In this document: positions 2,300 to 15,314 of the stretch, piece by piece
How the letters are laid out: each line of letters opens with the position of its first letter
How positions within the stretch are numbered: position 1 is the first letter of the stretch
From: Patellaria atrata CBS 101060
Taxonomy: Eukaryota
Reading direction: 5' to 3'
Assembly (NCBI GenBank): GCA_010093705.1
Contig: MU006112.1
Span: 186,001-250,000 of the forward strand
Length of the DNA stretch: 64,000 nucleotides
The notes under the pieces: model-generated
The model's database searches: none
Seen by the model: only the letters and a program-made list of their open reading frames with translations
Told to the model about the DNA's origin: nothing
Translations under genes and position numbers: made by a program

Positions 2300-3772
2300 A
2301 TGGAGACGTACAATGGCCATGTGCGGACTCCGCAAGATGCTATAATCTTATTTGAAGCATGTCGGATCGGGCAATTACCTCGTGTGCAGCGACGCTTATC
2401 AGAAAAGGAAAGGCAACAGATCAAGTCAGGATCCGTGTTTGTCTGGGATGAGCGGGAAGCAGGAATGAGACGATGGACTGATGGAAAATCATGGAGCGCT
2501 AGCAGAGTCTCTGGAAGCTTTCTCACGTATAGAGAAATGGAAGGCAAAAGAGGAACTGGCTTCGCACCTCCACCCCAAGCACCTCGAAAATCCGGGAGCA
2601 AGGCTCCAAGCGGAACGGGCTCGAATGATTCTGATGGAGATGAGGGACCGGATGGTTACCGCTACAAACCGGATGGATTGATGAAACAGTCTTTTAGTAT
2701 TACCACGCAAACTGGTCAGCATCTCCATCTGATTAGCTATTATGCCCGCTCGTCTCCTGGTGCACAAGAACTTATGCAACCGTCGAACGATCCGGCTCTT
2801 CGACACATAAGACCACAAAAAGGCATGTATCCTGAATCCACGGTCAATGAAGCATCGAGCGTACCGGCTGTCACACGGAGTCCTATGCAAGGAAGTCCAT
2901 ACGCCCCATCACCTCATCAAATGGCAATCGGTTCACCATACGCGCGGTCAGGTCCTCAGCATCCCACTGGATATATCGCTGTGGCACCACAGCCCACCCA
3001 AGGCCATGGTTGGCCACCTACTCCTCTTGGTACTCCCCCATATGGATACTATTATCCAACGGGTGCCCACATACCGCCTCCTGGACATTCTCCAATGCAA
3101 TATGGGCACGTTACTTACGCACCTCCTCCTCATTTCCAATATGGAGCTCCGGTTCCCCCTCCGACGAGATTTGATCAACCACCTGCTCCGTTAAGCAATA
3201 GCAACGGCTTACCTCCACCGCCGCCCCAACAGAATGGTCCTCCTCCACAATACGCGCATCATCAACATCAACCTCAATATATCGCGAATCCCTCTCCTCG
3301 TGCACAGGCTCCTCCAATAAATCCTAATCACCATCCTCCTACAAATTCTAAGGGACCCTTGATCGATCCAAGGCTTGCGACGGGTTCATCAAACGGCGAG
3401 CATAGTCAAGGACCACAATTACCACAGTTGAACGGAGATCGACGAGATTCGCCACGTCCGACATCGTCCGGAGCGCCTGCGACGAAGCCTGATGGCTCAA
3501 ACAATCTAGCGATCCCTGAAGTCAATGGTTCGACTAACGGAAACAACGCACCTTCACCAGCGAGTAAAATCCCTACCATTAGCGCACTTATGAACAATGC
3601 ACCTACCGAACATTCCACGGATAATAAGAGTGAAAAGAGTGTGAGTCGAGCGGGAAGTAAAAGTCCCAACAGCCTAATGCAACGTACGGCAGGAGAGCTA
3701 AATAAATCTAAGGCTGACCTTCACGAGGACGACAGAGTTTTGAGGCGGCTTGATAGAGTTTTCGTGAAGTAA
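2300..3772 (+). CDS. pac2: Gti1/Pac2 (WOPR-domain) transcriptional regulator, Pac2 type, 490 aa, intronless
   Basis: N-terminus METYNGHVRTPQDAIILFEACRIG...SGSVFVWDEREAGMRRWTDGKSWSASRVSGSFLTYREME and YKPDGLMKQSFS...HLISYY are the two WOPR segments; Pro/Gln-rich C-terminus. Confidence 0.93.
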   Translation: METYNGHVRTPQDAIILFEACRIGQLPRVQRRLSEKERQQIKSGSVFVWDEREAGMRRWTDGKSWSASRVSGSFLTYREMEGKRGTGFAPPPQAPRKSGSKAPSGTGSNDSDGDEGPDGYRYKPDGLMKQSFSITTQTGQHLHLISYYARSSPGAQELMQPSNDPALRHIRPQKGMYPESTVNEASSVPAVTRSPMQGSPYAPSPHQMAIGSPYARSGPQHPTGYIAVAPQPTQGHGWPPTPLGTPPYGYYYPTGAHIPPPGHSPMQYGHVTYAPPPHFQYGAPVPPPTRFDQPPAPLSNSNGLPPPPPQQNGPPPQYAHHQHQPQYIANPSPRAQAPPINPNHHPPTNSKGPLIDPRLATGSSNGEHSQGPQLPQLNGDRRDSPRPTSSGAPATKPDGSNNLAIPEVNGSTNGNNAPSPASKIPTISALMNNAPTEHSTDNKSEKSVSRAGSKSPNSLMQRTAGELNKSKADLHEDDRVLRRLDRVFVK

Positions 3773-8752: not shown

Positions 8753-10118
8753 TCACTGCGGCGAATAGCGCCACAAACAAATCAATCGATCATAGAAACT
8801 CGTCGAGAGAATCAACTTCCCCGTGCCGCCTCCCCTCGCGAGGACATCGCTTCCGTAGTTCATACTCTTGTGCTCTTCGAACCTCGCTACGACCTCAATG
8901 TCCCACTTACCCTTCTCATACCGCGTGACTCGGACAATTCTCGCACCCGCGTGCATGCAACTCGCGAGTATCAGCCACGTTAACTCCCTGGCACCGGGGA
9001 AAGTTAGCCTCGGAGCTTCTATGGCTTTCAGGCGCCACACACCGCCTCCCAGGTTCGCCTCGGCGAACACCTCCCTGCGTCCGAAACTCGGCGTCTTGAC
9101 CACGCGGACGTGGTCGTCGTAACTCCCTGTGACCGTCACGCCTTCCATCAAGGGCAGAATGGCGGTGACTCCGGCCCCGTGGAGCTTCCGCTCGAGCCAT
9201 TGGCTGCTGGTGTTTCGATCCACATAATTGTGTAAATCGCCGGCCTCGGAGATGAGCGAAGAGCGCAGCTCCCGGTATTGGAGGGAGGAGTCGTCGCCGC
9301 CGGAGAAGAGACCTGTGCCGTAGGGTGTGAAGGCGAGGGTCCAGGCTTCGAGGGGGTGATCGGTGAGTGTGGCTTGATCTGTGTTTTCGTCGAAGGTGGT
9401 CTCTTTGTCTTTGAGCGATGGGACGTTGCAGATGTTGGCTTCGCCGCTTGAGAGGGTTACGCCGACTATATCGGCGTCCATGGGATGCCAGTTGAAGGAT
9501 AGGATGAGAGTGGAAGGATGTTGGATTTGAAGAGTTTTCACGAAGGTTAGGGTAGGGTGGGGTTGGGGTTCTGTGGCCGGATTTTCGGTAGATGTTGGGT
9601 AGGAAAGAGTATACACTACGAGAGATCCGGTGGATGTGGCGGCAATTAGCAACTCGGAGTGATTATCGTGAGGAGAGAAATGAAGGTCGAGAATCGCATA
9701 TGGTGTTGGACAAGTTTGAAGAATGGTTCTTAGAATATGATTAACAGCAGTCCCAGTGTATATTTTGGTGCAGATAACAACAGCTGCACTGGAGCAATAG
9801 AAAGAAGGCTTCCTACCAAATACACCATTTCGAAATGCACCATTTGAAGTACAACATATCACCTCGAATCAATATATCTTACATCATCAACACTTACATT
9901 CGCTCATTCTCCACAGCACCAAGAACCAGACTGCCACTTCGCTTTTGGTCTTCGCTTGTTGATGGAAGGTCATCGTTCGTTCTCTCTGTTTTGTCTGCAT
10001 CATTCTTTTCGAGAAAATAGGTTCCAACTACGAAATACTGAGGAGACTTAGGCCATACTTCGATGCAGCTAGGCGGAAGGTCTATAATCAGACCGTGCAA
10101 GGACGGTAATGATGCCAT
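8753..10118 (-). CDS. dph7: Diphthine methylesterase Dph7/Rrt2 (WD40, WDR85 family), 2 exons (10118-9898, 9728-8753)
   Basis: DLPPSCIE..P..PQYFVVGTY, HPLEAWTLAF, FSGGDDS, HGAGVTAILP, TGSYDD, LGGGVWRL, LASCMHAG, FEEHKSMNYGSD and STSFYDRLICLW motifs; intron GTAAGT..AAG 9897-9729. Confidence 0.92.
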
Positions 10119-10856
10119 CTTGTTTGGTAACTTTCACTAGCCGAAGCTACAATTTGCTTCAATTTGTGCTGATGCCGTGAGACGTCTTTCTTCACGTCGA
10201 GGAGCGTAGATAATCTTTACTGTCTATTCTGCAGACATGAAGGCATCATTTCCACATGCGTGATGATGGCGGTTGGTGTGAAGTGGATCTTAAAATTGGT
10301 CGTTAATATAAGCCCTCAAACCCTGTTCCCTACACAAACGGCTAGCGCAGCCTGGTCAGACTGCTTCTTTCAACGTCCTGAAATGGAAACTGAGCACGAA
10401 AGGTAAGGTATCTTAATTTTGATTTAATAACCTTGAACGAGGATATTGCGAGGGACCTCTCTATATTACATCAATGGTAATTAAATACCAACCTTAGTCT
10501 ATTTTTGTTGGAAGGGAGTGTTGGTGGTGTATTAGCCAGGTAGGTGTACAATCTCGATTTTCGAGGTATTTGTTCACTATTTATAAGAAATAAAAGGTAT
10601 ACCTGTTTCTTCTACTATTTAATCAAATAATATCATGGTGAGATCCTTGGCTGAGCACAACGAAGGATAGTTGTGAGGAATTGAAAAGCCACCTGGTAAA
10701 ACTATCAACGCAAGAGTTCTCCAAAAAAGATATGATATCCACTTCCAGTCCTCATACCTTACTCTATTACATCAAAAATCTAGGCAAATCAAAGGAGGTA
10801 GTAAGATAAAGTGCAGGAAGAGAAGATGAAGAAATAAAGGGCAAAAAAAAAAGGAG

Positions 10857-11045
10857 AAAAAAAAGGAGAATCCTCTAATACGGCCCGCCCCTCCGTATTC
10901 CCTCAGCGCACTTTCCTGAGACCCCTCCCCATTCTGGCCTTTTGGCAACGCCGGGAATCGAGCCCATGGCACCGTGGAGACCGCGACGCTTGGGTGACAG
11001 GAGCGAACACTAAGGATCACACCACTTGACCACCGCGTGGATTTA
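10857..11045 (-). ncRNA. Candidate RNA polymerase III (type 2 promoter) structured non-coding RNA, ~180 nt, not a canonical tRNA
   Basis: Minus strand: TATATA (11078-11073), A box TGGTCAAGTGG (11032-11022), B-box-like GGGCTCGATTCCC (10965-10953, T54>C), then T8 (10864-10857) and T10 (10852-10843) terminators. GC-rich island in AT-rich DNA with extensive 5'/3' pairing. Confidence 0.6.
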
Positions 11046-11903
11046 TATGAATGCTAATTCCTGCACAATTAGTATATAAGGACTCATTTGATCTTCGGTA
11101 CGGGAACTTGTTTGGAACGGCATTATTTTACTTCAAAAATCCCGTTCAACCTAACACCAATAAAACGATAAAATAATGAAGCCTTACTTACGACCTCATG
11201 GGAGTATGAATTGGTATTATCTATAAACATCATATTCTATGATCGTCTAAGTCCCAATCCATAGAAGTACAATATACATGCGGAACCATGTTCGTCTTCC
11301 AGCCGATTCCTCTACAGCGAACAATTTCTCAAATAACGGGATAAATTGCTATATCACTACAATCATAAGAGATCGGTCTCCCGAAGCAGCGATGGGCCGT
11401 GATCTTCTGACAAACTCCAATCCCTTCAGAGTAACCGACCCGTTTCCGACTCGTATCAGCTGTTTCTACCGACCGGTCTGCAGTTTGAAAGCCTTCCACG
11501 AGACATGTTAGATGGTGGAGCTGTTGGAGTATTGGTCCTACCGGCGGCGACCAGGGCTAACGAGCTACTCGCTTATGTGGTATCAGCGTAACCAGGGTTA
11601 CTAATCTGATACAGTACTATCTTTTAGTGCTTACTGTTGGTGTCCATATTTACTGTTTTCTAAGACAGATTTCATACGGTTCCGTCCGTTTTGGTACACA
11701 CCTGCAGTATATAACAGCTAGATAGAGCCACTCTTTTGAGAATCAAGCGATATATTCGGTGCACCTGCAGGTCCAGTTTAACTAAAAAGACACGTAGCAT
11801 TTCTTTCGGATTAGAGGCTAGAAGCCACGCGATAAAAGTTTACCATTATCCTTACTCTCCTCTCACATACCAACACCCAACACCAGCTGCGTAGCATACA
11901 CGA

Positions 11904-12635
11904 CTAACCCAAAGAAGGCGCCCGCAGATTTCCGTCGAACGTCTGAGAGAGTTCACTTTGCTAAGAGCGCAATTTAGTCGAGTTTAGACTGAAATAGCAA
12001 TGATTGATACCGTCTCATTAACGCAATACTGCAAAGCTTGGCAAAGTGAACTTCCTCAGATGTTCGACAAAATTATGCAAATGTCTCTTTTGGGCCTAGG
12101 GCATCGACGAGATGAGGTATGCAACGGTAGATGATTTTTCCATTTCAGATAATGTGACCCTCGATGTCCTGCTCATTTCTAATGGTGAACAACTCAGTCT
12201 GACACTCCAAGACAGTCCCAGTCCTTAGAAAATTGAACTCCCTCAGACGTTCAACGAAACTGTGCAGGTGTCTCTTTCGGGCTAGAGAGATAGATGCACC
12301 GACATTGAGAATACAAGAATACAGCCCATGTTTCAGGATCAGGCGAGATGGTAAAAAAAACCAAGCTTCAACCCGTTGCCCCTCACAACCACAAACGTTC
12401 GACGAAAATCCGTAGATGTCTCTTTCGGGTTAGAAAGCTAGGAACAAACGGCCTTGATGTTGCAAGAGCGTGGTGGGTAGTTTGCCTAGATTAGGCGATG
12501 GCAGCTCGTGCTTGGTGAAGACTCCGCGCGTTGCCCCCGGCAACGGATACCATCTGACACCTGGAGGCGTGGCTTGGCGAAGTGAACTTACGTAGATGTT
12601 CGATGAAGTTATGCAGGTCCCTATATTAGGTTTAG
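11904..12635. repeat. Array of degenerate ~60-bp repeats with unique spacers; first copy inverted
   Basis: Consensus about CTTRGCAAAGTGAACTYCCTCAGAYGTTCGACGAAANTNTGCAGRTGTCTCTTTYGGG at 11965-11904 (minus), 12037, 12224, ~12390 (partial) and 12573. Hand alignment of the inverted copy to the next two gives 43/58 and 45/58 identity. Confidence 0.85.
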
Positions 12636-12973: not shown

Positions 12974-15314
12974 TCATCCCACAATCCCACTTCTCATATT
13001 CTCCACTGTCTTAAAACCCACCCCTCTCAACCCGCCCAACTCCTCTAAAGTCGTTACTCCGATCATTCCATTCCCATCCATTTCCACGAGACAATTCACA
13101 ATCGCTTCTGCTTTTTTCGCGCCTACGCCCTTTAGCAGCTTGATCTGCGCCAAGTCCCGTGTGTTGATGATACTCAGGATCTGCCTCGTACGTGGACTTT
13201 GTAGGTCAGGGTTTACAGATTCCTGTTGGGTGTCGCGAAAGACTTGCACTTTCGACTTGGTGGGTTTACGGGAGGACTTGGTGCGGAATTTAAAGCTGGC
13301 GTCAGATTGGTAGGCATCGTCTTCATCATCCTCATTTGGAGCTACGTATGAAGTATCTCTCTTATCGGGAGTTGGATCTTGATGGATTTTCTTCAGCTTT
13401 TTGGAGACTAGACTTGTTGCGATAGAGTGTTGCGGCGGTGGAATAGCGATCGGGACCGGTTTAACTGGGTCGGAAGCTCGCGTTGGGACGTAGGATACCG
13501 TTGAGATATATGAGAGGGCATTGTTATCACGTTTTAACCTGAGTTTCTCCTGTAGAGCGAGCATCTTCTGCGCGAGCTTTTCGTTCTCCGGGAAGTAGGG
13601 AAGGGCAAGTTGGTACATCTTGAGAGCACTGGATTCCTCACCACGAACCTGGTGCTGCTTTGCCATCAGGAGGTACTGCAAACCTTCAGCACGACTATCC
13701 TCTTTCTTTTCGATCCGCTGCTCGAGTGCGTGCAAGCGCTTCTGAAGATCTTCTGGTAATAAGGGTGCGGGTGCGGCATGTTCGTCCCTCAAAGCTTTTT
13801 CTGCTAATTTTTCCTCGATTCGTCGTTCGATCATTTCTTCAATACTGGCTTTTGACAATGTAGGCTCGTGGGCGGTTTTCCCAAATCTCGAAGTTTCGCT
13901 TGGTCGGACAACCTTAGTAGGTCTACTAGAGAGAGCAGTCGTAGTATCTCGTGCTCGTTTTCCGGGACTGGATCTCCGTGCTACCGTGGTGATTGATGGT
14001 CTTACTTGCTTGCTCTTGTCTGAGTATACTGAGAATGCTTTGACCGGCTTGTCAACTTTCTTATCTTGATCTAGGAGATTAACATTCATCGACGCTGCTA
14101 GTGGCTTCAGAGGTTGTCTTTGAATGTTCCCACCCATAATACTGGCCGTTGTCCGTGTTGGTGCTGCGGTCTTGAATATTGGCTCATTTTCAATCTCGTT
14201 AACCTCGATCTTCCTGGTCCTATTCGCAAAGTTTAAGGAGCTGAGTGTGTCCTGGTGATATGATCGGACGGGCGCAAGATTGAGTATCATTACTGTTAGT
14301 CCATTGTTCTGGCCGAGGGATAATATGCGGGTCATTTTTGATTCTCTGTAGGGTATGCGCGACTGCTTCTTGCTAATTGCCTCGACACACTGTGCTAGAA
14401 CAAACAATGACTTGTTAATCGCCGAGGATTCTACAAGTCTCTCCTTGTTATTATCCGTTCTACGGTTGTCCTCAGACCCTGCTAAGTCAATGGCGGATGC
14501 GTAACTGATGCGCGTTTGAGTCTCCGTGGTCTGGGTGATCTTAACACATAGGATAGCATGTGATCGGGATGAGTGTGCGTTTAACTGTAAACCCGGATAT
14601 CAGTGGTATGTCACCTTCCATCCAGTTTGTAACCCTACCTTAGTTGCAGATGTCGACCTGTTTACGTTCGCCTCATCATACAGTTTCTCAAACTCTTTCA
14701 GAGTAGTACATGGCCGTTCTGTCAATCCTACAACAACAGTTTTGCCGTTGTTATCTCTTATGGGTAATCCAGCAGGGGTTCGCTTCTCAGGTGCCTCAAA
14801 CAGATCATACACACGGTCATTATAGATCTCGTAGTAGCTCATTGCAACTTCTACTCCGGTTGCACCTGCAGAATCTTTTTCTATCTTCCTGCATCTTCGA
14901 TATATGCTGCTCAGTAATCGGGGGATGACACCCCTTTCCTGTAAAGATTTCCCACCGCGCATTGTGTGTGTTTTCCCAGTCCCTGTAACGCCGTATGCAA
15001 ATAGAGTAACGTCGAAGCCATTGAACAAGTGTTTGACCGTAGGAGCAACTATCCGACTGTCAATTGGGCTGGCTTAGGTACTATACTACATCCATACCTT
15101 CGTGATCAAAGATCTCTTGTTGCGTCGCATTTTGATCGTACACACTGTTGAATTGGAAGCTGTAAGATTCCGCTTCATTCTTCGGATTCGGTATGCGAAC
15201 GATCGTTGGACTGCCGGGAGTTTCCTTGCCAATTGAATCCGATGTAACTATAACATCTTTGTCGAGTTCGAGCTTTAACAGGGGACGTATACGGGCGACA
15301 ACGCGAACACTCAT
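12974..15314 (-). CDS. Kinesin-10 (Kid/KIF22-like) motor with C-terminal helix-hairpin-helix DNA-binding domain, 3 exons (15314-15098, 15048-14639, 14584-12974)
   Basis: MSVRVVARIRP start, P-loop FAYGVTGTGKTHTM, YYEIYND, NAHSSRSH, IDLAGSE, IPYRESKMTRIL; C-terminal LKGVGAKKAEAIV and LRGVGFKTVENM HhH motifs. Confidence 0.93.

Follow-up and report, generated by a model that had tools for sequence, protein, structure and literature searches.

Does the minus strand between positions 11,078 and 10,843 of a 64,000-nt stretch of Patellaria atrata CBS 101060 DNA (assembly GCA_010093705.1, contig MU006112.1, positions 186,001 to 250,000; hereafter the window, meaning this whole stretch) carry a gene for a new structured RNA? 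A first-pass annotation had proposed here an RNA polymerase III (Pol III) type gene for a highly structured RNA of about 180 nt that is not a transfer RNA (tRNA), with the source gene of a short interspersed nuclear element (SINE) as its fallback. The motif architecture of the locus is real, but the claim of an unusual RNA structure is wrong. With about even confidence, we read the locus as a discrete, single- or low-copy, tRNA-derived unit of Pol III type that has lost the tRNA fold, being a SINE-like element or a tRNA-gene relic of the kind described as AfuSINE2 in Aspergillus fumigatus. The evidence thus favours the annotation's fallback, or a tRNA relic, as detailed below.

Read along the minus strand, the locus comprises the following features, and the coordinates, motifs and distances originally assigned to TATATA, the A box, the B-box-like site and the T8/T10 runs are all correct.

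11076 to 11071, minus strand: TATATA, read from the sequence, 38 nt upstream of the A box; a candidate upstream TATA element with putative function.
11049 to 11041, minus strand: second TATA-like stretch, CATATAAAT, read from the sequence and adjoining the upstream edge of a GC island.
Between the second TATA-like stretch and the A box, minus strand: CACGCGG, read from the sequence.
11032 to 11022, minus strand: A box, TGGTCAAGTGG, matching the consensus TRGYNNAGTGG at 11 of 11 positions.
11030 to 11016, minus strand: D-arm-like hairpin GTCA / 7-nt loop AGTGGTG / TGAT with one G-U pair, in which the A box is embedded.
11000 to 10994, minus strand: CTGTCAC, 7 nt resembling an anticodon loop (central GTC for Asp, T at position 33 and a purine at 37).
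10967 to 10951, minus strand: T-arm-like hairpin with the B-box core, 4 of 5 stem pairs forming.
10965 to 10953, minus strand: B-box-like site, GGGCTCGATTCCC, 57 nt after the A box.
10964 to 10954, minus strand: B-box core, GGCTCGATTCC, with one mismatch to the B-box consensus GGTTCGANTCC, a C at tRNA position 54.
10950 to 10865, minus strand: G-rich body of 86 nt unrelated to tRNA, read from the sequence.
10920 to 10902, minus strand: local hairpin CTCAG/CTGAG, present within the G-rich body.
10899 to 10877, minus strand: local hairpin AATACGG/CCGTATT, likewise present within the G-rich body.
10864 to 10857, minus strand: T8, a Pol III terminator-like run about 88 nt after the B box, followed by CTCC and then T10.
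10852 to 10843, minus strand: T10, a second terminator-like run, followed by a long CT-rich tract.

With a TATA element, an A box, a B box at permissive spacing and T-run terminators, the locus is built, at the sequence level, like a type-2 Pol III unit. Judging from the usual distance between start site and A box, transcription would begin near position 11048. CACGCGG had been described as lacking an acceptor-stem partner, and indeed only 3 of its 7 nt find a partner in the heptamer behind the T arm. The CTGTCAC loop, which may be a trace of an ancestral tRNA, sits 8 nt farther from the A box than in a tRNA and is not enclosed by a 5-bp stem. A 4-bp CGCT/AGCG stem is found near it, with the 3' side displaced by 3 nt.

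How readily would such a set of motifs arise by coincidence? Scanning both strands of the window with TRGYNNAGTGG and GGTTCGANTCC returned three strict A boxes and four B boxes with at most one mismatch. Only one A-B pair at a spacing of 25-90 nt exists in the whole window, and it is this locus, while about 0.007 pairs per window are expected under independent placement as calculated from the motif counts. Runs of T or A are similarly rare (five of at least 8 nt and two of at least 10 nt in 64 kb), and one of each lies here. Behind the A box stands a 4-bp D stem, which occurs at 6 of the 43 loose A-box matches in the window, and 2 of the 3 outer T-stem pairs form at the B box, as they do at 13 of 46 B-box-like matches with up to two mismatches. 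Additionally, the unit coincides with a sharp compositional island, with 53-64% GC over 10850 to 11049 compared to 28-42% on both sides. A scan of metagenome contigs for both boxes at 50-65 nt spacing gave six loci that have the box pattern alone in common; they are mostly GC-rich and coding-like, and ARAGORN finds a tRNA in none of them. The bare two-box pattern therefore does arise by chance in very large collections. Because the locus holds the sole A-B pair of the window against an expectation of about 0.007, together with the T runs, the D and T stems and the GC island, it is accepted as a discrete element with type-2 Pol III unit anatomy.

Is the predicted product a known RNA? Using default settings, with and without introns, ARAGORN reports no tRNA gene in the window. 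At lowered thresholds its output of three to four "tRNAs with introns" per 701 nt amounts to noise; the call covering the locus takes the T run as acceptor and needs an "intron" of 89 nt. None of 4227 Rfam families reaches its gathering score in the window. Relaxed covariance-model searches (E ≤ 10) on 701, 206 and 103 nt produced 2, 4 and 2 matches, respectively, at 11-18 bits, with the families concerned (microRNAs, a CRISPR repeat, ctRNA and small nucleolar RNAs (snoRNAs)) having gathering scores of 42-100; no match to tRNA, 5S, U6, signal recognition particle (SRP), RNase P/MRP or another Pol III RNA family such as Y or vault RNA was among them. Hence, the non-tRNA claim is borne out by the ARAGORN result, the missing Rfam tRNA match and the 3 of 7 acceptor pairs, and the statement that the locus bears no signature of 5S, U6, SRP, RNase P/MRP or snoRNA agrees with none of these reaching an Rfam gathering score. 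A snoRNA was rejected, as neither a C box nor an ACA box is visible by eye in the 3' body and no Rfam snoRNA match rises above noise. A coding exon was rejected as well, since Pfam gave nothing at E ≤ 1 for the stop-to-stop frames over the locus (93 and 63 aa). Exact sequence strings of the element do not occur in the literature searched, where AfuSINE2 and Helenus were the sole published counterparts found for fungal Pol III non-coding RNAs (ncRNAs) and SINEs.

Does the predicted RNA fold in an unusual way? The first-pass annotation had the two ends zip into a long panhandle capped by a tRNA-minihelix-like arm. Each helix it listed consists of valid pairs, but the panhandle assembled from them is absent from the minimum free energy (MFE) fold: it evaluates to -39.2 kcal/mol, versus an MFE of -65.2 kcal/mol for the 176-nt RNA, which adopts a different fold. 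Even this optimum is unexceptional. Dinucleotide shuffles of the whole RNA (n = 200) reach -64.7 ± 3.9 (z = 0.08), with 106 of them folding at least equally well; a separate script with 300 shuffles gave -65.9 ± 4.1, 51% matching the native folding, and shuffling the C/U-rich and G-rich halves apart gave -65.0 ± 4.1, with 45% matching it. The individual parts fare no better. Shuffled sequences fold better than the 41-nt "minihelix" in 198 of 200 cases (z = +1.71), than the 98-nt tRNA-like part in 198 of 200 (z = +1.83), than the 81-nt 3' body in 166 of 200 (z = +0.92) and than the 61 nt carrying both local hairpins in 148 of 200 (z = +0.63). The description as a highly structured RNA with a long panhandle is thus unsupported because the folding energy is no better than that of shuffles, the whole folding like them and the parts lying at or below chance level. 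The same applies to the suggested vault/Y-RNA-like architecture, as predicted folding equals or trails that of shuffled sequence. A G-rich plus C/U-rich sequence of such composition pairs equally well by default.

Is the element repeated, and did it arrive by insertion? Read depth was taken from two public runs of one sample and one study, which probably represent DNA and possibly are the source of the assembly. A 170-nt contig over the element (10877 to 11046) has a depth of 425.6 in one run, compared to 450.6 and 475.6 for its flanks, and of 350.7 in the second, compared to 322.5 and 357. By k-mer depth the element is single-copy. In both runs it stands alone in this 170-nt contig, so both assembly graphs must branch close to either end of it. 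The bins 10738 to 11004 and 11005 to 11271 show a summed depth above what the listed contigs explain; this excess may stem from diverged copies elsewhere, homopolymer variants or assembly-graph noise.

Contrary to the original remark that no target-site duplication (TSD) is visible, a direct repeat flanks the locus, albeit outside the predicted RNA ends:

11141 to 11128, minus strand: upstream copy of the flanking direct repeat, GATTTTTGAAGTAA, 14 nt.
10780 to 10767, minus strand: downstream copy of the flanking direct repeat, GATTTTTGATGTAA, 14 nt.

The copies are identical at 13 of 14 positions, have the form GATTTTTGA[A/T]GTAA and bound a 347-nt segment from 11127 to 10781. A 14-nt repeat with at most one mismatch was attained in 3 of 300 shuffles of the flanks. 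This is suggestive of an insertion event. The upstream copy is separated from the predicted start by 79 nt and the downstream copy from T10 by 62 nt. No inverted repeat is present at either end of the 347-nt segment. At its 3' end the element reads T8-CTCC-T10 and then runs into the CT-rich tract; the earlier point that a T-run takes the place of an A-tail holds. A solo long terminal repeat (LTR) of the Helenus type was rejected after a script over the locus found no TG...CA termini with a 5-bp duplication; duplications of 5 or 6 bp were absent, and the only matches were two 4-bp coincidences at separations of 662 and 726 nt.

Taken as a SINE-like element or tRNA-gene relic, the locus would descend from a tRNA gene, and its predicted transcription would proceed as follows. 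Bound to the near-consensus A and B boxes, TFIIIC would position TFIIIB on the upstream DNA, which is AT-rich and carries TATA. Pol III would then start near 11048 and stop in T8/T10, yielding an RNA of about 185-200 nt. In this RNA, a D arm and a T arm would resemble those of a tRNA, acceptor and anticodon stems would be missing, and the G-rich 90-nt body would have no special structure. Binding, transcription and transcript ends are here predictions from sequence. Most likely, the locus yields a by-product, is a relic or is merely a TFIIIC-bound site, rather than a gene for a dedicated structured ncRNA.

Several observations weigh against the SINE-like or relic reading. Neither half of the element has a second copy in the window, so that mobility is unproven; the position of the flanking repeat is unexplained by retrocopying of a Pol III RNA, and neither strand carries an A-rich or simple-repeat 3' tail beside that repeat. 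The putative tRNA ancestry draws its support solely from the boxes and the two arms, and the Rfam tRNA model (RF00005) finds nothing even on 103 nt at E ≤ 10. Near-perfect boxes in spite of lost stems, together with an undecayed GC island, are also what a constrained functional unit would look like. Finally, AfuSINE2 is, as far as the available part of its description goes, a loosely defined class of mostly single-copy members (PMC5063351).

Could the locus instead be a tRNA gene, perhaps of Asp(GUC) type, that was broken by small insertions and decayed, and that now acts at most as a TFIIIC-binding site resembling an extra TFIIIC (ETC) site, with a role in chromatin instead of an RNA function? 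The D arm, the CTGTCAC loop of anticodon form and the T arm do follow each other in the correct order, three insertions could account for the extra 24-25 nt between the boxes, and decay would agree with ARAGORN detecting no cloverleaf. This history, however, needs both boxes to have stayed near consensus through several indels and the complete loss of the acceptor stem (3 of 7 pairs), and it leaves the GC-rich 90-nt body ahead of the terminator unexplained. Against the ETC comparison, ETC sites carry a B box and are not known to have an A box or a terminator. We consider a decayed tRNA gene unlikely.

In our judgement it is quite unlikely that the locus is a genuine single-copy Pol III gene whose product, a lineage-specific ncRNA of about 185-200 nt, was exapted from a tRNA as in rodent BC1 or 4.5SI. 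What speaks for such a gene is the near-perfect state of the promoter boxes though the tRNA stems are lost, the permissive box spacing with two TATA-like elements and a double strong terminator, the single-copy DNA depth and the absence of an A tail. Moreover, the whole unit including the 90-nt body forms a sharp GC island whose edge falls exactly at the T runs, and 4.5SI genes, according to the available part of the source, likewise combine boxes A and B with a TATA-like box at -31/-24 (PMC10137851). Yet excess secondary structure is found nowhere in the unit, no Rfam family fits and the metagenome-contig scan for the box pair revealed no relatives. The near-perfect boxes and the GC island ending crisply at the terminator keep a novel ncRNA alive as a reading, but positive evidence for it is none. 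More doubtful still is the fuller version, according to which an ascomycete of an isolated lineage would maintain a single-copy, tRNA-exapted Pol III gene whose non-tRNA RNA of about 185-200 nt works through its D and T arms and G-rich tail, for example by protein binding, and not through a stable global fold.

Least probable, and indeed very improbable, are chance motifs in a GC-rich upstream element and pyrimidine tract that form part of the Pol II promoter region of the WD40 gene downstream: the T runs do merge into a long CT-rich tract (10770 to 10866) of the type that occurs in filamentous-fungal promoters, loose box matches are common in the window (43 A boxes and 46 B boxes with up to two mismatches) and the exact box pattern turned up six times by chance in the metagenome collection, but the expectation of about 0.007 strict pairs per window falls further with the base rates of the D stem (6/43) and T stem (13/46) and the rarity of long T runs, and the tract is 650-750 nt away from the WD40 ATG.

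In which surroundings does the SINE-like element or tRNA relic lie? Three genes serve as landmarks:

2300 to 3772, plus strand: Gti1/Pac2 gene, a 490-aa open frame.
8753 to 10133, minus strand: WD40 gene, with its ATG near 10118.
12974 to 14962, minus strand: kinesin gene with a helix-hairpin-helix motif in its C-terminal part.

A kinesin motor combined with DNA binding, as in the last gene, is an architecture seen in chromokinesins. The element shares its orientation with both genes and lies within the 2.85-kb spacer between the kinesin stop codon and the WD40 ATG, about 725 nt upstream of the latter. Full-length identity of the Gti1/Pac2 protein to its best named homologues, which come from Dothideomycetes, Lecanoromycetes and Leotiomycetes, is only 51-54%. 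Because the nearest named relatives are only this similar, the genome belongs to a poorly sampled lineage of Pezizomycotina, with none of its close kin in the collection compared. The database entry for the window's own Gti1/Pac2 protein has 288 aa, versus 490 aa for the open frame. Another protein of this family, P0088, is of fungal type and carries the source label of a Deltaproteobacteria metagenome-assembled genome; it probably derives from a mis-binned eukaryotic contig.

The spacer is rich in repeats, which speaks for the SINE-like or relic reading. Positions 11506 to 11805, which lie 460-770 nt upstream of the element, constitute a high-copy repeat at about 40 times single-copy depth. 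Its summed contig depth is about 17,400 versus about 450 for the flanks in one run (X1) and 9,100 versus 320 in the other (X2), and it is represented by numerous short variant contigs with loose ends at 11506, 11546, 11623, 11667, 11704 and 11736. No similar stretch exists elsewhere in the window, and the repeat has no similarity to the element. Farther upstream, a unit of about 60 nt recurs within 11904 to 12635 as five degenerate copies with 72-79% identity; four are direct and one is inverted, and they are probably remnants of a small repeat family. The copies have a common 15-nt end motif that is also present at 11802 to 11816.

What follows depends on which reading is right. If the locus is a SINE-like relic, it is chiefly a matter of annotation; loci of this sort look like Pol III genes, may both recruit TFIIIC and affect chromatin or neighbouring genes, and cause false calls of "novel ncRNA". 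If it is transcribed and conserved, it would join the very small number of type-2 Pol III genes in filamentous fungi known to encode something other than a tRNA, and it would exemplify, outside mammals, the exaptation of a tRNA gene into a new RNA.

How does the locus compare with known systems? With nuclear tRNA genes and pseudogenes it shares the A box, the D arm, the T arm with its B box, the T-run terminator and the AT-rich, TATA-bearing upstream region. In contrast to them, it has no acceptor stem (3 of 7 pairs) or anticodon stem, 57 nt separate its boxes, the terminator comes only after about 88 nt of additional body, and ARAGORN as well as the Rfam tRNA model find nothing.

Among tRNA-derived Pol III ncRNA genes, rodent BC1 keeps the A and B boxes plus an upstream TATA-like box. 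Rodent 4.5SI genes, as described in the available part of the report, have boxes A and B and a TATA-like box at -31/-24 (PMC10137851). The locus resembles both in having few or single genes, internal A and B boxes combined with a TATA-like box, a tRNA-derived 5' part and a non-tRNA product, the latter two being predictions in our case. Their RNAs, however, are expressed and conserved within clades, whereas the locus is known from its sequence alone, and no RNA of the 4.5SI/BC1 type has been described from fungi in the literature searched.

Helenus (TRIMp3), again according to the available part of the source, comprises non-autonomous LTR retrotransposons whose LTRs hold a tRNA-like Pol III promoter; Pucciniales and a few Agaricomycetes are the reported hosts, and the solo LTRs are flanked by 5-bp TSDs (PMC10886601). 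Common to Helenus and the locus is a tRNA-like sequence in fungi that kept the promoter motifs and lost the functional tRNA fold within a short, in our case putatively, mobile element. Unlike Helenus, for which that part of the source reports no ascomycete host, the locus has no TG...CA pair with a 5-bp duplication, and near it there is no second LTR, primer-binding site or polypurine tract.

The closest counterpart is AfuSINE2, a set of tRNA-related, SINE-like sequences of 140-493 bp in Aspergillus fumigatus Af293 with estimated copy numbers of 1-5. In the available part of their description, these sequences have degenerate internal A/B boxes, flanking repeats or TSDs of 4-14 bp and, ahead of an oligo-T tract, a part unrelated to tRNA; their 5' parts cannot fold as cloverleaves, and transcription was positive by reverse transcription PCR for 5 of 8 sequences (PMC5063351). 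The locus differs from AfuSINE2 in that a by-eye comparison with the eight members printed in Table 1 of that paper reveals no sequence similarity, its boxes are near consensus and not degenerate, transcripts were demonstrated for AfuSINE2 only, and the locus has no known link to a partner long interspersed nuclear element (LINE). At face value, the locus nevertheless falls within the AfuSINE2 definition, including the negative default tRNA search, although this definition is permissive and constitutes no proof of mobility. Both reside in a filamentous ascomycete, and the locus, with 347 bp between its flanking repeats and a core of about 200 bp, lies inside the 140-493 bp range. It likewise combines A and B boxes, a tRNA-unrelated part upstream of oligo-T, short flanking repeats, low copy number and the lack of a cloverleaf. 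The likeness extends to the layout of an individual member, AfuSINE2-4a (Table 1 of the same source), in which a long T run is followed by about 50 nt before the flanking repeat (PMC5063351).

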